Below the pieces are notes generated by a model that had not been told where the DNA came from, searched no databases, and saw only the letters and a list, made by a program, of their open reading frames with translations. DNA of 62,939 nt, counting the filler, from Reclinomonas americana ATCC 50394 (taxonomy: Eukaryota), in the NCBI GenBank assembly GCA_048213135.1. It is 6 parts of 6 records of this genome, joined end to end, with 100 filler letters (N's around TTAATTAATTAA, not from the genome) between each part and the next. Parts side by side here need not be neighbours in the genome. Positions count along the whole stretch, not along the records: positions 17,959 to 33,113 come from AFZH01016934.1; 5 more parts are not named here. One strand, written 5' to 3'. The translations under genes were made by a program, and so were the position numbers. Below, in pieces: positions 17,859 to 61,677 of the stretch. Positions within the stretch are counted from its first letter, which is position 1. The number at the start of each line of letters is the position of its first letter.

Positions 17859-17958
17859 NNNNNNNNNNNNNNNNNNNNNNNNNNNNNNNNNNNNNNNNNN
17901 NNTTAATTAATTAANNNNNNNNNNNNNNNNNNNNNNNNNNNNNNNNNNNNNNNNNNNN
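17859..17958. other. Artificial scaffold spacer (six-frame stop linker)
   Basis: 44 N + TTAATTAATTAA + 44 N. Confidence 0.98.
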
Positions 17959-28695: not shown

Positions 28696-31600
28696 ATGTC
28701 GGCAGGAGGCAAGAAGGCCAGCAAGTTCTTTGGCACTGCGTCATCCAGCGAGGAGGAGGAAGAGGAGGAGGAGGAGGAGTCCGACTCCGGCAGCGACGAC
28801 AGTGGCTCTGATGATGTTGCGTGTGTGTGCGCAGAGTGACAATGTCCACCCAGAGCGCCCTCTTCTCTCTCTATGTATGTCGAGCATCGTGGAGTGTGGT
28901 GGTTCCCTCCCCTTTGTGGTGCACTGTGTGTGCACTGAGTGCGGCAGTGTGAGAGGCTGTGCGTGTGAGGAGCGAGAGGACATGGCTGCACATGTACGAC
29001 AGACAAGGCGGCGGGCATGTGGACACGCGCACCCCCTCTCTCTCTCTGGTCCTCCCTGTCCGACTGCATACAGCCGCGCTCTCTCATGCACGCACACGCA
29101 CGTGCACGACTCAGAGAATGTCAGACGATGTGCAGAGATCCCCGAATTGGATCACTGATGTTGGTGCTGTGTGTGCAGATCTCTGATGAGGACAAGGCCG
29201 GCCCTGCACGTGTGAACTCGGCTGGTGCGCGCCGCGCCGTCGCGGCCATGACTCGCGACAACGACAGCGACTCTGACGATGGCAAGCGCAAGGTGCGACC
29301 GGCGTTGGAGCGCAAGCAAGACGAGATCAGGGTGAGTGCAGCGTCTTCTCTTCCTCCCTTGCGCTGCCTCTCGCGCTACTCACACTCTTGTTGGATGCAG
29401 AATCTGGCACAATCGTTGACGCGTCGCCTGGCTGTGGCACATCCGGTGTGGTCGGAGGTGTTGGAGGGATTCAATGAGTTGACGGCCACATTCTCCAAGT
29501 CGCAAAAGGTGCTCGGATCGCTGCTGCCGGAGCCGATGCTGCTGGCGTTGGCACGTCTCGAGAGCCGTGTGTTCTCCACGGACAGGAGCACCATCTCTTC
29601 GAAGCCCGACACCAAGGCCTACAACACGCTGCGACAGCGCATCAAGAAGCACAATATGAGCTTTGGTGCGGACATGGACGCCGCTCGTGCCAAGGCCATG
29701 GAAGCCGAGCAGCCGACCGTCGCAGCCTCGCGCGATGCATTGTCGCCGGTGGGTGGTGCATCGTCGTCTGGTGCTTCGCGCTCCGGTGGCGACGAGGACG
29801 GCGACGGTGACGACGACGACATTTTCGCCGATCTCGACGACGAGGACGAATTGAGCGATGATGGCGAGCGAGGAGGGGCCAGTGGCAGTGGTGTCCGTGT
29901 GCTCCGCAGCAAGTTCTTCGATGTCGGGGTGCGTATCCCTCGTCACATTTTCCCCCAGAGGTGGTGCGTGGAGACAGCTCACCCCACTTTTTCTCGTTCT
30001 CGCAGTCATCGGATGATGAAGAGGAGGAAGATGTGGCAGACGATGGCTCGAGCATGGACTCGGACTCGTCGGCGTCGAGCAAGAGCGACGGCATGGTGGA
30101 GGCCATTATGGCACGCGGTCCGATGCGCACGGCCGAGGGTCGCCTCATCAAGACCGGCATCAACTGGTTCCTCTCCGAGTCCGAGTCCGAGGAGGACGAG
30201 GAGGAGAAGAGGAACAAGAAGGAGAGGCGCGAAAAGAAGCGCGCAGAGCGCAAGGAGCGCCATCGCGCCAAGAAGGAGATCACCTTCTCAGAAGAGCAGG
30301 CCACCAAGCGCCCAGACGCGGTGGAGGAGGTGCTGACAGACGACCAAATCATCGATCGCATTGGCCAGATTTTGGAGCGCAGGAAGGTCGGTCGACAATC
30401 ACCACACACACCACACACCCCCTCCTACCTGTGCTCACCTCTCCCTCTTGGTGCACACTGCAGCTTCGCATGGACCGTCAGCAGCAGCTGCGCGCTCTGC
30501 ACTCGCTTGTGCGCCGCATCTCGTCGCCTGTGCTGGTTCTCGACGGTCTGCTCAGTCTCATCAGCATGCAATTGGAGTTCCGCGTCGGCAACGTGATGCC
30601 TCTCTCACTGTGGAAGGAGTTGAGTAGATGGAGACTGCCTGTTGGTGCAGCCATGGACTAACATTTGCTTCTCGACTCCAGTTGCTTCCAAAACGTGTCG
30701 CAGTTGATTTCCGTCATGGAAGAGCACCCGGAGGTCGTGGCTTCACGGCCAGCAGCCCGCGACGAGGAGGAGGTCACACCGGTGAGTGTCACACTGTGTT
30801 GTCATTGCACACTCCCTTGTCGCTGCGATTCTCATGGAGGTGTCGTATCGTACAGGCCCGTCGCATGGCCCGCATGAAGGGCAGCCTGGTCAACTTTGTG
30901 GAGCGCCTCGACGACGAGTTCACTCGCCTGCTGCAGTTCACCGATCACCACTCGGACGAGTACGTGGAGCGTCTCGAGGACGAGTATTTCCTGGTGGACA
31001 TGCTGGAGCGTGTATACGAGGTTTGTGTGCATCATCAGCTTGGCGCGTGTGTGCGCGATTCCTCTGACTCAATTCTTTCCCGTGTGACTGCAGCTGCTGG
31101 AGGGCGAGGGCACGGGTCCGGAGCTGCGCGCCAACCTGGCCTCGCGTCTCATCGATCACATTTACTACAAGCGCATTGAGGGCTACATCAAGGCGCTACA
31201 GCGCCAGAAGTCGGTGGTCGGTCAGGCTTCCGAGCGTGCCGCTCAGGGTCTGTACACCGACACCCACGAGAACCGCGACGGCGACGCCATGCCGGTGCGC
31301 ATGCCGTCGGAGGCCGTCAGCGAGAATTCGGCCGACAACAAGGACGACAGCTCGGAGGCGGCGGGTGCCTCTGCGGCCACCACCCTCAGCATCCTGCTCG
31401 GCGAGCAACCGCGCACCAAGCGCATCACGTGCGTCACGAGAAAGAAGTGATGCGAGGTGATGGGCGTCTGCGCTCACCACATTTTCTCTCTTTGTGCAGT
31501 GCACGTGCCGGCCGACTTGGACGCACACTCACCGAGGATTTGAATCAGACTGTAATGGCGCTGTCACGAGTGGTGTTCCAGTTTGCGCTGGACCGTATCA

Positions 31601-33113
31601 AGGCTCGCGTCATTCTCCAGCTGGCCTACCACTTGGCCGTGCACGATCAGTTCTACGCCGCACGCGACATGTTCCTCGGCAGCCATGTGGGTGACGGTAT
31701 CCAGCACTCGGACGTCAATATGCAGATCCTGTTCCACCGCACCACTGCACAAATCGGTCTGGCCGCGTTCCGCATTGGCCTCCTGGAGGATGCTCATGCA
31801 GCGCTGCAAGAGATTTGCTCCACCATGCGCATGCGTGAGTTGTTGGGACAGGTGAGGAATGCGACACCGCTGGAGTTTCCCTCTGTCTCCTTCTCTCTTC
31901 TCTTCTCCTCTCTTTTGTGCCTCCTCTTGTTCTCCCTGCATACCGCAACGAGTCAGTGCTGCATCCACTACCTCCATGGTGCAATCGTGTTAGTGTTGCG
32001 GTACATCAATCCCCTCGCGATGCCGTTGTCTGTTGTGCGCGCCGATTGCGCCTTGTCGGTTATCGACGGGCGCGTTTGGTAGCGGCAGTGGACTCCGTCT
32101 ATTTTATAGATGGCGGCATTCTGTTGAGGCTGCGTCACGAGGCCGAGCTCCGCTTTTGTGAGAGACTGTCCACTGTATGCATTTCCCTTTTTTGAGTGGC
32201 CAGTCTGCCTCTGTGGGCAGCGACATCCTTTTTCTTTCTTCTTCAGCACTTGTTGCTGAGATCTGTTGCGCAGGGCCAGCAACGGTTCGCCGAGCGCACA
32301 CCGGAGCAGGAGCTGAAGGAGCGCCTGCGTCTGGTGCCGTTCCACATGCACATCAATCAGGACACGCTGGAGGCGTCGCATCTGATTTGCGCCATGCTTC
32401 TGGAGGTGCCTGACATTGCCGCGCATCCGCACGACGCCGGCAAGCGGCTGAAGAGCAAGGCCTTCAAGCGCCTGCGTGACCACTACGACAATCAGATGTT
32501 TACCGGCCCGCCAGAAAACACGCGCGATTACATCAATGCGGCGTCGCGTGCACTGCTCAAGGGCCAATGGCGCGAGGCATACGACCTGCTGGCACGCATG
32601 CCATTCTGGGCCCTCGTGTCGAATGCGAGCGCGACTCAGGAGCTGCTGAGAAGGTCGGTCGCCACATGTGTTTGTCCGACAAGTCTCTGCCACTTGCATG
32701 TACTGAACATTTTTCATGATGCAGACATGTGCAAGAAGTCGGTCTGAAGGCATTCCTGTGGACGTACGCCACCTTTTACGAAAACATGGGCCTCGATCAC
32801 ATGGCTGAGCTGTTTGAGTTGCCGCCGAATGTGGTACACCGCACCGTGTCGAAGATGATCTTCACCGACGACTTTTCGGCCTCGTGGGACCAACCAAACA
32901 ATCTGCTGGTGTTCGACCAAGTACGACCAGCACGTCTGCAGTACCTGGCCAGCCAGTTTGCCGACGAGACGGTGAAGATGGTGGATCAGAACGAGCGTCT
33001 CTTGTGCCAGCTGTTTGGCACACCCGGCGGTCGCCAGGATGGTGGCAAGGGCGATGGCGAGGGCAAGGACGGTCGTGGTGACCGACGTGGAGACCGCGGC
33101 GGCCGCGGTGGCC
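28696..33113 (+). CDS. EIF3C: Translation initiation factor eIF3 subunit c, 3' end in gap
   Basis: Acidic N-term KFFG..SSSEEE; VERLDDEFTRLLQ, HIYYK, PFHMHIN, GPPENTRD, PCI domain VSKMI..ASWDQ. Confidence 0.96.
31941..32008 (+). ncRNA. Intronic H/ACA guide hairpin predicted to target LSU rRNA helix 69 Psi2258 (yeast numbering; snR191/U19-like)
   Basis: Basal stem TACCGCAAC/GTTGCGGTA; pocket strands GAGTCA (31950-55) and GTTA (31989-92) complementary to UAAC-Psi-A-UGACUC; ACATCA (ANANNA/ACA) box 14 nt from the pocket; inside the 422-nt eIF3c intron. Confidence 0.75.
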
Positions 33114-33213
33114 NNNNNNNNNNNNNNNNNNNNNNNNNNNNNNNNNNNNNNNNNNNNTTAATTAATTAANNNNNNNNNNNNNNNNNNNNNNNNNNNNNNN
33201 NNNNNNNNNNNNN
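33114..33213. other. Artificial scaffold spacer
   Basis: N44-TTAATTAATTAA-N44. Confidence 0.98.
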
Positions 33214-35501: not shown

Positions 35502-35574
35502 TCCCCGATAGTCTAGGCGGTTAGGACAGTAGTCTCTCACACTGCAAACCCGGGTTCAACTCCCGGTCGGGGAG
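35502..35574 (+). tRNA. trnE: tRNA-Glu (anticodon CUC)
   Basis: Acceptor stem TCCCCGA/TCGGGGA, D loop with GG, anticodon stem GTAGT/ACTGC with CTC at 35536-38, T arm CCGGG-TTCAACT-CCCGG. Confidence 0.95.
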
Positions 35575-38720: not shown

Positions 38721-41326
38721 ATGAGTAAATACGCAACGCATGTGAGTTGGAAGAAGAGAAAAGCAACTTCACGTGTCCTTTGCATTTCGCATCGTGCAAC
38801 ATGCAGGCGCCGACAACTCGTGCGTCTTCTCTCTCTTCCCTCACTTTCCCTGTAGAATCCTCACTCTCACGCGCATCATCTCACAGGTCGCCGCGAACGT
38901 GGCAGCGGGAGGTACACTGTGCACTCTCTTTTCTCACTCACACACTCACTCATTCTCACACGTGCACACGTTACACAGTGCGCCCTCTGCGCCTCTCTCA
39001 TTCACCGTCGACGGCGACATTGTGCGCAACAACGCGTCCGTGCAAGATGAGGCCACCATGCATGCACTTGAACAAGTGCTGGAGGAGGCGCAGTCGACGG
39101 GCGCTGCGGCGGCGGCTGCTGCTGCTGCTGCAGCCGACACTGTTGCAGTGACGCATGTGCGTCGTCTCCTCAGCACTTTGCGCACACCAGTGGCGCGTGT
39201 CGCAGATGCGGCTGCGTGGGATCAAGAGGAGCGACGAGTGAGTCACTTGCGCATTCCCTCACTCTCCCCTCACTCTCCCCTCGCTCCTCCTCCTCTTTCT
39301 TCTCCTTCTTCTTCTTCTTCTTGTTCTTCTTCTCCTTCTTCCTCTTCTTGTTCTTCTTCTTCTTCTTCTCCTTCTCCTCCTCCTCCTTCTCCTTCTCCTT
39401 CTCCTCCTCCCCTTCTTCTCCTTCTTCTTCTTCTTCTCTTTCTTCTTTCTTCTCCGCCTCCTTCTCCATTTCCTCTCACTCTTTCCCTCTCTCTTTGCAG
39501 CTTCAATCTGAACCCCTGGTACCTCCGCCACCCCCTCCACCTCCCTCGCTGCCAGCACCGCCCGTCTACGAGGGCCTGGCGGAGCAGGAGGTGGTGGCAC
39601 AGCGTGGCGAGTTCATTGCGCGTGCGGTGAGCGAGGCGCATCGCGAGTACGTGCAGGCACGTCTCGAGTTGCAACGCAAGTTTGACTTGTGGCGTCGCAC
39701 CACCGACGCTGGTCATCTCATCGACGAGTATCGACGAAGTGTGGCGCTGTCGGGCGCTCGTCTCGTGCAGAACGTGCATCAGACGATGATGAGTCGCAAG
39801 CGACTGCGGCAGGTGGGGCACCTATGACATCTCTCTCCCGCGTGCGTGTTCTCATTGTGTGTGGGTGAGTACAGGCCATCCCCGACGATGATTCACGCAT
39901 GCGCAAGTTCCGGAGGATCGCTGGGCATGCCGACTCGGGTCGCCACAATGCGTGCCGAGTGCCGGGATGTGAACGACGGCCCATGCCGTGCACCGACTAT
40001 TGCTTCCACTGTTTTGTTACATCCCCTCCTTGTCTGCGTCTGCTGGCACCTGTCTCACAGCCACCGTCCACGCAACAGGTATCATGGAGGACCCGAACCA
40101 GCAGCTGTACCGGTACTGTGGCACGGCTGGTTGCCAGACGCCGGTGCCGGTGTTTTTCGACCCTCCTCTCTGCGCCGAGTGCCGCCGAGTGTTGCGTCTC
40201 TTCGATGTGCGCTACAACTTCTGGCTGGCTTGCTTTCTAACCTTGTGCACAGCGTGCTGTCGAGCTCTCGTGCACCCATGCGCTCGTCGTACTCGGAGGC
40301 CGATGCGCTGATGACGCCGCATTTGCAGCCGGCGTCGGAGGAGGTGAAGCGAACGGTGAATGCCGCGGCGGCTGGTGATCGACCGGGCCTCGGCACGGTG
40401 TGGATTGTGGAGCCGCGTGTGGAGACAATGGCTCAACTCGCCCTGTCCGTGTATCCACGCGATCCGTTCCGACCGTCGAGCACCGCGGCACACCAGCAGC
40501 CGCTGCAGAGCTTGTCGCTCGGCAAAACTTCCCTGGCGACGGTGGTCGGACAACTCCAGCGTGAGGCCGAGACCGAGGCCAAGATGCGCGCGGAACAGAT
40601 GCGCGCCTCGCAGCAGCAGACTAGTATCAGGCAGCGCCAGCTGCTCGGCGAGCTCCAACTCAAACACCCAGTCGGTGTGCCGTATGCAGGCGGCGGTGGA
40701 GCAGGCGCAGGTGCGATTTGATTATTTATGGTTGTTGTTTCTGCTGTTGCGACGATTCTGACATGAGCTGCAGCAAGGGGAGCAGGTACGCGGGCGCGGC
40801 GAGCGCCTCGGCGGGCCGTGGCAGATGACGACGACGACAGCGATGGTGGTGATATGATTGTGGGCGGCGCTCTGTCGGCCGACCGCTCACATCGGCGGCG
40901 GCGCAATTCCAATCGACTCGACTACTCCAAGCTGCTCGCCGGCGACGGCGCCGACGGTCTGGATGAGGGGGGCCGAGTCGGCGACGATGACGATCCGGAG
41001 TTTTCACTGGACAGGTCGGTTTGCGTGTGTGTATGTGTGTGTGAAAAGTAGCCCAACCAAGATAATGCTGCAGGGCCTCCGAGTACCGCTCGTCCACCAC
41101 CACCTCGATGCGCCCCACACCAACTGTCGTCCACGTACCTGCTCCTCCTCCACCACCACCACTACAGCGAGGCGCACCACGCCAGCCGCTGTTGCTGCTA
41201 CCGACCATGACATCGGAAATGCTCTCGGCGGCGTCCTCTGCTGCTCCGTCGTCCGGCCTGTCGCCTTCTGTGGTCGATCCACTGCTCGGCGAGAGCTCGC
41301 CACTCCTGCCCCTGGCCTCCGCGTAG
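38721..41326 (+). CDS. KANSL2/INO80D-like protein with zf-C3Hc3H domain
   Basis: CRVPGCERRPMPCTDYCFH..IMEDPNQQLYRYCGTAGC..PLCAEC; start and last exons tentative. Confidence 0.7.
39284..39470. repeat. (CTT/CCT)n polypyrimidine low-complexity tract in an intron
   Basis: Almost purely C/T trinucleotide-like repeats. Confidence 0.9.
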
Positions 41327-53134: not shown

Positions 53135-53234
53135 NNNNNNNNNNNNNNNNNNNNNNNNNNNNNNNNNNNNNNNNNNNNTTAATTAATTAANNNNNNNNNN
53201 NNNNNNNNNNNNNNNNNNNNNNNNNNNNNNNNNN
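53135..53234. other. Artificial scaffold spacer
   Basis: N44-TTAATTAATTAA-N44. Confidence 0.98.
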
Positions 53235-57649: not shown

Positions 57650-57749
57650 NNNNNNNNNNNNNNNNNNNNNNNNNNNNNNNNNNNNNNNNNNNNTTAATTA
57701 ATTAANNNNNNNNNNNNNNNNNNNNNNNNNNNNNNNNNNNNNNNNNNNN
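57650..57749. other. Artificial scaffold spacer
   Basis: N44-TTAATTAATTAA-N44. Confidence 0.98.
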
Positions 57750-58106
57750 AGAATGAGGAACGGAAGAGGGTGTTGATCAACCACGTCACACATGCGCGGT
57801 GCGCTCACACGAATCAATGACACGTACACATGCACGCGTGAGACGATCCTCACTCAGAGGAGGGTGAAGAGAGAGAGAGAGGAAGAGAGCAAAGAGTGCG
57901 AGAATGTGACGCAGATGGGCGCGAAAATCAATCACAACGAGAATGCAGCGCACACAGGCACAGGCAAACAACGAGACGCACATGCACACGCGCACGCGCA
58001 GCAATGTTCACTCGGAGGAAAAAGAAGAGAGGGGAGAGAGAGAGGAGAGAGAATTCGAAGGAATCATTTCTGCGATCAATGCACACACTGCAAGAAGAAA
58101 TCTTTC

Positions 58107-58137
<31 letters not shown>

Positions 58138-58496
58138 TTCTTTCTCTCTCTCTCTCTCTCACAACAACAACAACACCTTTCATGCAACAACGAATCGAAC
58201 ATGAGTCCTTTTCGCCTCCCGCGTCCCTCTCTCCCTCGCTCGCGCATTCTCTCACGCCCCGCACTCTCTTCCTCACTCATCCATGACACGTGACACAGCA
58301 GGCGACCATCAAAACACGGGCGTGCTGCAGAAATAAAAGAAAGAGACGGCGGATGTCCTGCATGACATTGATCTCCGGTCACGCACAGCACAACGTACAC
58401 CGCCGCGAGAACAAGCCTACCGTGTGTGAGACGCGTGAGCAACAAGGTACATCGTGCTGAAGAGCGAGAAAAGAAACAAAGAACTGCGACGAGAAG

Positions 58497-61400
58497 ATGT
58501 CGGTGAGTTGTTGATTGAGTGGGGGACGCGTGTTGTTCGCTTGCTTCTCCTTGTCTTCTCTCTCTCTCATCGCTTGTCACTTACCGTCCTTGTGGGCGTG
58601 GGACAGTTCTCTGTGAATGTGAGTGCGGCGCATGATTCATCGCTGTCGGTGGTGGTGGAGGGCATGACGGCCATGTCCACACTCGCGGACTTGCTGTGCG
58701 AGGCCACTCGCTTGCTGCGTGAGAAGAGTGGAGATGGGGAGATGGAGATTGTCGGAGTGGAGAAGCCTGTACCATACAAGATCGCCAAGGTTGGCGGAAT
58801 GGAGCTGGAGGATCTGGGCATCAACTTATCCACTCATCTTGTTGTCCGTCTGACACTTGGCGTGGCGCTGCAGTCGACTGGAGGCAGTGGGAGTGAGAGT
58901 GGAAGGTATGCGTGCGAATCATCCCTCTGTGCAAAGCGTACATCTCACTCGCATGTCTCCGCACAGCAATTCAGAGCGAGTGACTCGGTTTGTTTTGCTT
59001 GCCGTTGTCATCCTTCTCTCTTCCTTGTTCTTCCACTCGAAGAGAGTCTGTGCTGACTGTGTCTTCCACGCACGCAGCATGATCAACTCGCAGCGCATCC
59101 ACATGGCCTTTGAGGTGGTGGAAGAGGCCGTGCGTCTGCGCTGTCAACGTGCACTGGCCCAGTTCAGTCGCGATCATTTCGACTTTGATGTGCGGGCGTG
59201 GGCAGTGGACCTTTGGTCTCCACGAATGCAGCCAAGTGACGGGAAGATATGGCGTGAGCGACATGCACCAATCAAGGGATGGCAGGTCAGAGTTTACAAA
59301 GAGGCTCAGCCGCAGCTGATAAGCTTGCGTGCTGCCTTCGACTCCGATCCAACATCCGACCCTCCATGCGACGGTTTCGACACAACGGCACTCGCCTCCA
59401 TCATGCTGTATGGTGGGTTTGTTCAGGATGGCGGTCGCAAGCTGTTGCTCATTGACGATGCGGACGAACGCAGTGCTGTGGAGGAACTGAATGACGTGAG
59501 GAAGGGGATGGCGCACGGCTCGTTGGGGTTTTCTGATGTCACTGTGCAGCAGTACCTTGGTGACCGTGGTGTTTTCCTCTCCATCCTCTCTCGACTGCAG
59601 TTGACGGCTGACGAGCGTGCTCGATTCACTGCTCGTATCTGCGAGGCACGTCACGCTCGTCACATCGTGGACACATTCGAGGAACGACTTCATCGACTGG
59701 CGGTGCGTGAGCTGTCTTTCTACCAGCACGATGAGAGTGTGCGCAAGGACATGCAGATGTATGTGCCGCTGTTGTGTTCCCGTGATCGCGACGTCTCCTC
59801 GAGAGACAAGATGACGGATCTGTTGACGGAGGTGGATGCCTTCCTCGCCGACAGCAACTCCACCCAACGTGTACTGGTGCTCTTTGGCAACAGCGGAGCC
59901 GGCAAGACCACCACCATGTCGGTGCTGGCCGAGCGAGCTTGGCGACAGTGGCAGACAAGGGAAAGCAGACGAGTGCCTGTGCGTGTGCCTCTTGGTGCTC
60001 TGCGCAATGCTGATGAGCGATTGTTGGAGGAGGCACTGGAGCGACTGTCACCCGAGTTGGGATTCAGCGAGGGGGATGTGCGACGGTTGAAGGAGGAACC
60101 GCTTCTGTTGTTGCTCGACGGATACGACGAGTTGTACCGTGGTGTGAATCTGTTTGTCAAGAACCAGCTGGATGTGTGTCGCGATGTGAAGGCGATTATC
60201 ACCTGTCGTGAGGATTACGCTCTGACGGCACTGGGTGGAGCGGCGCAGTATCGACGGTACTTTGCTCCGGTGGATGCACGCGGACAGTTGTGCATGCAGC
60301 AGCTGATGGAACGGCACATTGCACCGTTCAACAAGGAGCAAATTGTGCGGTATCTGTTGCTACTTGTGCAAGATGGTGATGATGATGATGACGATGATGA
60401 AGTGCGATGGTCGACTGTTGCTGATTACATTCATGCATTGAAGAGTGTGCATGGACTGGATGCACTGGTGTCGAATCCGTTCCTGCTGGCAGTGGTGGCT
60501 CGTGTGTTGCCGCAGTTGGTTGCGAGTGATGTGCAACGACCAACTCGGTGTGATGTGTTTGACCGATTCATACGACAGTGGATTGTGAGGGAGCAGGAGA
60601 GGCAGACACGTATTGGTGCAGAGCGTGTGCCAAGTGAGGAGACGTGTCTGGCATTCTGTGAGGGACTGGCGCGGTTGATGCATGAGAGGAATGCGGTCCG
60701 TGTGTCTGTGACGGAGAGTCGGTCAAGCGATGTTGGAGAGGAGGAAGACTTTGGCGGTGCCCCACTTTCCGTCCGACGAGTGGAAGAGGGACCGTTTGAC
60801 AAGTTCCTCGGTCACAGGAACCAATATGTACGAGTGTGTTGTCCGATTGTGCGACGGTATGGGACGACGGAGTGGGGATTCGTGCATCTGTCGTTGCTGG
60901 AGCACTGTGTGGCACGTCATGTGTTTGCGTGGGAGACGTGGGATGAGGAGAGGCAGTTGACGATACAAGATGTGCAGCAGCATGTGCTGGCAGTGCGACT
61001 GCTGAATGATCGACCGTCATTGGTGGAGCAGATGGCCGAGGTGGTGCGACGGTCTCCTCGATTACAAGCAAGGCTGTGGGCGGTGATTGAGATGTCACGG
61101 GAGGTGGATGAGGAGCGAGTGGTGACGGCAGCAGCGAATGCGGCGACGGTGTTGTGTGTGGCACAGGTGTCGTTCAGTGGGCGGGATCTGTCGGGTGTGC
61201 GAGTGAGGGGTGCGGATTTGAGGGATGCTGTGATGCATAGGACGGTGTGGAGAGGAGCGGATATGCGTGGGGTTAATGTATGCATGGCGTATGCGAGGGA
61301 GGCGGATTTCAGGGAAGCGGACGTCACGGGTGCGAAGTGGCCGACTGACCTTGTTAAAAATCATGAAGGTCCAGTGTTTTCTGTCGCGGTTGCTCTTGAT

Positions 61401-61577
61401 GGTCAGTACATTGTATCCAGTAATGTGAAGATGCACTGCGACAGTTGGTCATGCAAATCGGAGTCTCTACTTACATTTCGCGACTTGCGCAAGACACAAC
61501 TTTTGCCCCACACTCGGGTTAAGGGTCAAGGGCCCAGGAAGCCAACGGTCAAGAGCAAAGGGTCAAGGGTAGGGTGT
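58497..61577 (+). CDS. NLR-like STAND protein: ubiquitin-like domain, HEPN-like domain, NACHT, pentapeptide repeats, start of WD40; 3' end unresolved
   Basis: Walker A GNSGAGKTT (59886), Walker B LLLLDGYDE, ITCR, NPFLL, FVHLSLLEH, AAANAATVL, DLSGVRVRGADL, HEGPVFSVA; three 5' GT-AG introns keep frame from ATG 58497. Confidence 0.88.
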
Positions 61578-61677
61578 NNNNNNNNNNNNNNNNNNNNNNN
61601 NNNNNNNNNNNNNNNNNNNNNTTAATTAATTAANNNNNNNNNNNNNNNNNNNNNNNNNNNNNNNNNNNNNNNNNNNN
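61578..61677. other. Artificial scaffold spacer
   Basis: N44-TTAATTAATTAA-N44. Confidence 0.98.

Follow-up and report, generated by a model that had tools for sequence, protein, structure and literature searches.

Host gene and intron

This analysis concerns a window of 62,939 nucleotides (nt) of DNA from Reclinomonas americana ATCC 50394 (assembly GCA_048213135.1), and in it a long intron of the eIF3c gene that carries a candidate box H/ACA small nucleolar RNA (snoRNA) directed at helix 69 (H69) of the large-subunit (LSU) rRNA. The host gene lies on the plus strand, as do all parts of the candidate described below, and extends from its start codon at 29248 to 33113, where its 3' end is truncated by a contig-join linker that begins at 33114. 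Nine GT-AG introns were found in this span, and the gene model is free of stops up to the linker. Translations of the exons on both sides of the intron were matched by Pfam PF05470 (eIF-3c_N), in agreement with the host gene that an earlier note on this DNA had named, and PF01399 (PCI) was matched further downstream. The exon translations also matched eIF3c chains of the PDB with E-values of 9e-22 and 6e-23, and a protein atlas search agreed with the assignment of the exon to the eIF3c family. The exon is nearer to mammalian eIF3c than to the eIF3c of yeast or Trypanosoma cruzi.

The host intron (31852-32273) is 422 nt long, reads GUGAGG...GCGCAG, and was placed by the Pfam and PDB alignments together with the gene model. 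It separates positions 536 and 540 of the eIF-3c_N profile, which fall before and after it, respectively. The other eight introns of the gene measure 69, 77, 77, 63, 74, 73, 71 and 71 nt, and the host intron is 5.5 to 6.7 times as long. The window, which is eukaryotic, is GC-rich (about 58%). A second in-frame acceptor was noticed at 32246, 27 nt before the one at 32273 and preceded by a pyrimidine tract; its alternative use would add nine residues to eIF3c. The acceptor at 32273 is preferred because the other acceptors of the gene read (U/C)GCAG and because it gives the better fit to the Pfam and PDB alignments.

Elsewhere in the window the intron has no repeat copy, whole or in part, and the longest chance match is 14 nt. 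An origin of the intron from a repeat or transposon was rejected on this basis, given the lack of a second copy within the window. Introns of translation-factor genes are common hosts of snoRNAs, and the candidate is in sense orientation relative to eIF3c. It is conceivable that the resemblance to H69 described below arose by chance and that the intron is structured for some other reason, such as a splicing-related fold, a small RNA derived from one of its hairpins (hairpin B) or a decayed insertion. Such an explanation needs the resemblance to fall, in sense, in just that intron of a translation-factor gene which stands out by its length, and in a core not repeated anywhere else in the window.

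Geometry of hairpin A

The first structured element of the intron, hairpin A, has the layout of an H/ACA guide. Its lower stem consists of eight Watson-Crick base pairs (bp) between 31942-31949 and 31995-32002. The earlier note had described a basal stem of 9 bp, of which these eight stand; the ninth pair, U31941-A32003, takes the first A of the box that follows. Above the lower stem lies the pocket, with GAGUCA as its 5' strand (31950-31955) and GUUAGU as its 3' strand (31989-31994). The upper stem-loop (31956-31988) is irregular, with 10 bp in all and a 9-nt loop: a G.U, a U.G and a G-C pair are followed by a 1x2 internal loop, 4 bp, a bulge, 3 bp and the loop. The lower stem leads directly into ACAUCA (32003-32008), a candidate H box (ANANNA) that starts with ACA and lies in a single-stranded hinge of 10 nt, ACAUCAAUCC.

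In H/ACA RNAs about 14-16 nt usually separate the target U from the H or ACA box downstream, and the distance from the top of the pocket to ACAUCA is exactly 14 nt (31989-32002). A typical pocket-to-box distance of 15 nt is given in PMC7075261. Direct reading and folding thus recovered the pocket GAGTCA/GTTA, the upper stem and the box ACATCA at a distance of 14 nt, all of them as the earlier note had placed them. When the 68 nt from 31941 to 32008 were folded in isolation, the H/ACA-like fold was the minimum-free-energy fold, at -21.7 kcal/mol.

Complementarity to helix 69

For the search of targets, eukaryotic LSU rDNA was taken from metagenome contigs by means of a 21-nt H69 pattern, which yielded 101 loci. 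One of them, L001, was used as the target; it is a eukaryotic LSU (Rfam RF02543, 2833 bits) from an organism unrelated to Reclinomonas, and 3083 nt of it were compared. The standard H/ACA topology was assumed: sequence upstream of the target U is bound by the 3' strand of the pocket, and sequence downstream of the unpaired U-N by its 5' strand. This orientation agrees with the one described in PMC7075261.

Read in this way, the complement of the pocket is UAAC-[UA]-UGACUC. GUUA pairs with the UAAC on the 5' side of the target U, and GAGUCA pairs with UGACUC, which lies 3' of the unpaired U-A and comprises part of the H69 loop and the 3' side of its stem. The H69 sequence to which the pocket is matched is UAACUAUGACUC. 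In L001, the H69 U was the unique best target by Watson-Crick pairing, with 4 + 6 = 10 bp, the runner-up reaching 6 bp. When G.U pairs were allowed, position 2461 of L001 paired over 12 bp, but a large share of this duplex consists of G.U pairs, among them four of the six pairs on its 3' side. The pairing with H69 exceeds the 8 bp that PMC6049503 reports as the minimum for a functional guide-target duplex.

The residue predicted to be guided is the first U of CUAUG in the H69 loop, that is, the first U of UAU. It corresponds to position 1915 of E. coli, Psi2258 of yeast and Psi3741 of human (PMC7075261; bioRxiv 10.1101/2024.02.02.578723), Psi standing for pseudouridine, and the same two sources term the H69 pair of pseudouridines the most conserved in rRNA. 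In the Rfam consensus of eukaryotic LSU, the H69 stretch is written entirely in upper case, with the stem GGGAGU/ACUCUC and the loop AACUAUG.

The structured core of the intron

Hairpin A is the first part of a longer structured region. A pyrimidine tract at 31877-31939 (85-100% C/U) and a second one at 32226-32245 border a core of mixed composition, 31941-32228 (288 nt), that reaches from the foot of hairpin A to just past an ACA. The predicted fold of the core comprises, in order, hairpin A, the 10-nt hinge, hairpin B, hairpin C and a single-stranded tail of 7 nt that contains the ACA.

Hairpin B (32013-32129) spans 117 nt, folds at -57 kcal/mol, is rich in G.U pairs and is Y-shaped, with a long arm of 66 nt (32028-32093) and a short arm (32095-32113). 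It has neither a box nor an open pocket. Hairpin C (32129-32221), the terminal 3' hairpin, folds at -38 kcal/mol; it has a lower stem of 14 bp with two bulges, followed by a junction, and its two strands are complementary to each other. The candidate terminal ACA box (32223-32225) begins 1 nt past hairpin C and is single-stranded in the predicted fold. By the rule of the family, the mature 3' end would lie at 32228, 3 nt past position 32225.

The distribution of the boxes is in keeping with this arrangement. ANANNA occurs once in the intron, at 32003, where it is unpaired in the minimum-free-energy fold. ACA occurs twice in the core, at 32003, directly behind hairpin A, and at 32223, 1 nt behind hairpin C. 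According to PMC6049503, the order hairpin, H box, hairpin, ACA defines the box H/ACA class. The core, as predicted by folding, matches this hairpin-hinge-hairpin-tail order, but with the extra 117-nt hairpin B. A chance resemblance to H69 would need the sole ANANNA and the sole other ACA of the core to have fallen exactly behind hairpins A and C, and pyrimidine tracts to bracket precisely 31941-32228. A different layout, in which hairpin A is the 3' hairpin of an RNA that begins further upstream, was also considered and rejected, as the pyrimidine tract 31877-31939 cannot fold and no ANANNA occurs before 31941.

The core is more stable than expected from its composition, and this holds for the sense strand. 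For the sense core the folding energy was -114.7 kcal/mol (z = -3.07), and 2 of 200 shuffled sequences folded equally well or better; for its reverse complement, z was -0.91 and 31 of 200 shuffles did as well or better. This asymmetry fits an RNA structure with G.U pairs and not a DNA palindrome. As background, 288-nt windows were folded at 26 places on both strands, between positions 501 and 39501. None of the 52 reached z <= -3 and a single one reached -2.5 or below. That window, 39501-39788, was the only one with a notably low value, z being -2.96 on its minus strand and -2.41 on its plus strand. A chance match to H69 would also have to coincide with this sense-specific folding, at a z that none of the 52 background windows attained.

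The behaviour of the reverse complement bears, too, on a quite different explanation, namely that the minus strand encodes a box C/D snoRNA similar to plant snoJ33 (31943-32020). In a search of 701 nt around the candidate, the snoJ33 model scored 18.2 bits (E = 0.7), the reverse complement of ACAUCA is UGAUGU, which resembles a C box, and a CUGA follows downstream. The score is far from the gathering score of 45, the match was gone in the search of the whole window at E up to 5, and the RNA would be antisense to eIF3c. Its inverted repeat lies inside the C box and not outside both boxes, and the antisense core has no excess of structure. The match was therefore judged to be a chance one, far below the gathering score, and a C/D snoRNA at this place is considered extremely improbable.

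Probable length of the proposed RNA

The earlier note had envisaged a guide with a single hairpin. In that form, the product would be an H/ACA-like RNA of about 68 nt (31941-32008), with the ACA at 32003-32005 as its terminal box and hairpins B and C unrelated to it. Hairpin A is indeed self-sufficient, since it has the stem, the pocket and the ACA followed by 3 nt (UCA), and the H/ACA-like structure is the preferred fold of the 68-mer. Trypanosomatids are described as having single-hairpin guides, and such guides are predicted for Entamoeba (PMC2613932, PMC3542256). Archaeal single stem-loops can function alone as described in PMC7075261, although the same source states that eukaryotic conditions differ in this respect from archaeal ones.

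Several observations speak for the longer RNA. A cargo of 68 nt leaves about 350 extra nt of the intron unexplained. The second ACA comes exactly after the terminal hairpin, and the ACA of the first box is also the start of an ANANNA that lies unpaired in the hinge. Both the boundary of composition and the structure specific to the sense strand reach 32228, well beyond the 68-nt unit. Furthermore, the eIF3c exon scored 80 bits against the mammalian protein and 34 bits against that of Trypanosoma cruzi, which places the organism outside the kinetoplastids, where single hairpins are best known. Since the only ANANNA of the intron lies in the hinge and the structured sense core extends to the ACA at 32223, an RNA of about 288 nt (31941-32228) is likelier than one of 68 nt. 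The single-hairpin form proposed in the earlier note is probably wrong, and we regard it as quite unlikely. What stands of that proposal is its central part: an intron-encoded H/ACA guide for H69 is the best-supported explanation of the locus, and the features of it that can be looked for in the sequence were found.

Chance expectation and points against a guide RNA

The frequency with which such a pattern arises by chance was estimated in two ways. The pattern GAGTCA-N20-50-GTTA-N10-12-ACA, a count that takes no account of the stem, occurred once in the window against 0.09 expected, and at least one match was found in 9 of 100 shuffled windows. In the second approach, stems from the window itself served as decoys. 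On the two strands together there are 13 perfect stems of 8 bp or more with an ACA 0-2 nt behind them, the candidate included. Three box distances and nine lengths of the 5' strand were tried for every stem, and a contiguous Watson-Crick pairing of 10 bp was sought at each of 600 U residues of the LSU. None of the 12 decoys with a stem of at least 8 bp reached 10 bp; with stems of at least 7 bp, 1 of 44 did so, and with stems of at least 6 bp, 6 of 140. None of these matches, at any stem length, was at H69. From the last figure (6/140/600 per U, multiplied by two H69 sites and 12 decoy stems), about 0.002 chance matches to H69 are expected per window.

This number has to be set beside the prior for an H69 guide in a given window of 63 kb, which is about 0.001 and hence of a size similar to the chance expectation. 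As the latter is not negligible, the verdict leans on the host context, the structured core and the architecture.

This similarity of prior and chance expectation counts against a guide RNA, and further observations weigh in the same direction; a number of them speak for a fortuitous likeness to H69. With regard to hairpin A itself, its stability is unremarkable (z = -1.49, 19 of 200 shuffles folding equally well), its upper stem has a weak base (G.U, U.G, G-C), and the 3' side of the pocket gives only 4 bp. A competing hairpin at 31956-32004 folds at -19.1 kcal/mol, 2.6 worse than the H/ACA-like fold of the 68-mer, and when the whole intron is folded, this rival hairpin and a long-range pairing take the place of hairpin A. 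The remainder of the core is not that of a textbook H/ACA RNA either: where the canonical form has a short hinge, a hairpin of 117 nt separates the H box from the 3' hairpin, and hairpin C, like hairpin B, has no open pocket. The best LSU match of hairpin C, 12 Watson-Crick bp at position 2287 of L001, was discarded as a target and judged to be a chance match because the site lies in a hypervariable expansion segment that was found in 2 of the 50 loci with enough flank.

Comparative searches point the same way. No Rfam H/ACA family was found in 31700-32400 (701 nt, cmscan, E up to 10), nor in the whole window at the gathering score or at E up to 5. The family match to SNORA74 or snR191 that the earlier note would have looked for was thus missing at every threshold used, and homology with either RNA is unsupported. 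When metagenome contigs were searched with the upstream eIF3c exon, no relative was present among the 338 pattern matches. Finally, the match to H69 relies on the universality of this helix, because the LSU compared is not that of Reclinomonas itself.

Taking both sides together, a chance resemblance to H69 in an intron that is structured for another reason is considered rather unlikely, given the series of coincidences noted above. Based on the sequence features, it is probable that the eIF3c intron 31852-32273 is the source of a box H/ACA snoRNA about 288 nt long (31941-32228), the 5' hairpin of which would guide the H69 pseudouridine equivalent to yeast Psi2258.

A second register in the pocket

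H69 carries a second pseudouridine next to the first, and the intron was searched for a pocket that fits it. No second H69 pocket was found at 14-16 nt from the ACA at 32223, from an AGA at 32163 or elsewhere in the intron, so the earlier note, which had reported none downstream for the neighbouring U, is borne out. According to PMC7075261, the neighbouring pseudouridine is guided in yeast and human by the other stem-loop of the same RNA.

The pocket of hairpin A does contain a slid register, as had also been pointed out before. UAGU (31991-31994) pairs with ACUA and GAGU with ACUC, giving 4 + 4 = 8 bp at 12 nt from the box, with two unpaired guide nucleotides on each side below the upper stem. 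GAGT/TAGT at this spacing is therefore present in the sequence, but the register is weak, its 8 bp being equal to the reported minimum. The two bases of the 3' strand that this register adds, G31993 and U31994, would agree by chance in 1 of 16 cases.

It is a tentative and, on balance, unlikely suggestion, made by analogy, that the single pocket of hairpin A might serve both H69 pseudouridines by switching between the two registers, with GUUA and GAGUCA in the first (10 bp) and UAGU and GAGU in the second (8 bp). Precedent for guide loops that act on two sites through alternative pairing is given in PMC8763049 and PMC7075261. If the pocket worked in this manner, the RNA may at the same time be a three-hairpin H/ACA RNA whose 3' hairpin is set apart from the H box by a structured insertion of 117 nt. 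For the neighbouring pseudouridine, the options are the second register of hairpin A, another snoRNA elsewhere in the genome and a stand-alone enzyme.

Comparison with known guide RNAs

The RNAs that the candidate would resemble most in function are U19 (SNORA74) of human and snR191 of yeast, both of which are longer than typical H/ACA RNAs. The candidate would belong to the same class, have the same target helix and modify the same first site (yeast Psi2258, human Psi3741), and in its predicted fold it shares with them the order hairpin, H box, hairpin, ACA. It would be intron-encoded like U19 (Kiss et al. 1996, as cited in PMC8763049). The differences are that no homology of sequence or structure was detected for the candidate with Rfam models at E up to 10, and that the extra hairpin B of 117 nt separates its H box from its 3' hairpin. 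In U19 and snR191, each of the two stem-loops makes one H69 pseudouridine (PMC7075261), whereas the candidate has an H69 pocket in hairpin A and none in hairpin C. Judging from the sequence, the candidate most likely acts like U19 and snR191, yet it is not classifiable as their homologue.

In sR-h45 of Haloferax volcanii, as described in PMC7075261, the 3' stem-loop (SL2) has one pocket for the H69 loop sequence UAUG, which is comparable to hairpin A. The linker of 56 bases that the same source gives for the two stem-loops of sR-h45 is the nearest precedent for the spacing that hairpin B introduces. In contrast to the candidate, sR-h45 is archaeal and not intronic, and its SL2 makes both pseudouridines, at 17 and 19 nt from the ACA (PMC7075261). 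The second activity of the candidate is a conjecture, and its main register pairs U-G by Watson-Crick bases.

Human dual guide loops are found in SNORA53, SNORA57, SCARNA8 and SCARNA1, where alternative registers place two nearby U residues (PMC8763049); the slid register of hairpin A would be a like mechanism. The same source describes SNORA53 as acting on Psi3747 and Psi3749, sites of the H69 region, and proposes register switching for the same H69 positions in Haloferax. The human loops were proven by knockout and rescue (PMC8763049), whereas the second register of the candidate is read from its sequence, with 4 + 4 bp.

The single-hairpin H/ACA-like RNAs of trypanosomatids have the size and layout of hairpin A alone. 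These RNAs are not known to be intronic. They carry an AGA box (PMC2613932), and the structured unit of the candidate is much longer than they are.

Other features of the window

Five identical linkers of 100 nt were found at 17859-17958, 33114-33213, 53135-53234, 57650-57749 and 61578-61677, each composed of 44 N, TTAATTAATTAA and 44 N, which marks the window as a series of contigs joined end to end. The sole Rfam match at gathering level was a tRNA-Glu (CUC) at 35502-35574, with 57.8 bits.

Pfam searches of the long open reading frames (ORFs) between 12501 and 57470 revealed RabGAP-TBC, KIF1-binding protein, OST3/OST6, WD40 proteins, GST and a mitochondrial carrier, as well as BRE, peptidase M49, thioredoxin, a TRIC channel and a protein kinase. 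All of these neighbouring genes are split by introns. The longest ORF with an ATG start (58908-61625) would encode 905 amino acids and had no relatives in the protein search. Because part of it coincides with low-complexity sequence and with a contig linker, this reading probably does not represent a real gene.

A long hairpin at 58009-58160, in which a GA-rich run stands opposite a CU-rich run, folds at -63 kcal/mol (z = -3.5). It was considered as a microRNA gene and rejected as a low-complexity artefact, its matches to many models of plant microRNA precursors being weak, on both strands and all far below the gathering scores.

Proposed pathway and significance

If the intron does encode the snoRNA, the RNA would be freed from the spliced eIF3c intron by exonucleolytic trimming and would be bound by the dyskerin/Cbf5 complex, the proteins that hold stable RNAs of this class being dyskerin/Cbf5, Nop10, Nhp2 and Gar1. 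In its 5' hairpin (31941-32002), GUUA would pair with UAAC and GAGUCA with UGACUC of H69, so that U-A stays free of pairing where the upper stem begins, at a distance of 14 nt from the box. ACAUCA (32003-32008) would serve as the H box, hairpin C together with the ACA (32223-32225) as the 3' hairpin and tail, and hairpin B as an insertion between the hinge and the 3' hairpin. Hairpin B may have a structural part in the snoRNA as an insertion, or it may give rise to a separate hairpin-derived RNA. We infer from these features that the RNA would accumulate with the ends proposed here, that it would be bound by protein and that H69 itself would be modified.

The candidate is otherwise a member of an ordinary gene class in an ordinary host, with a somewhat unusual build. 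If real, it would direct a modification that is one of the two most conserved in rRNA, in a window where Rfam finds no snoRNA. Guides of this kind would then be findable from their geometry, the complementarity to the target and the outlying length of the host intron.

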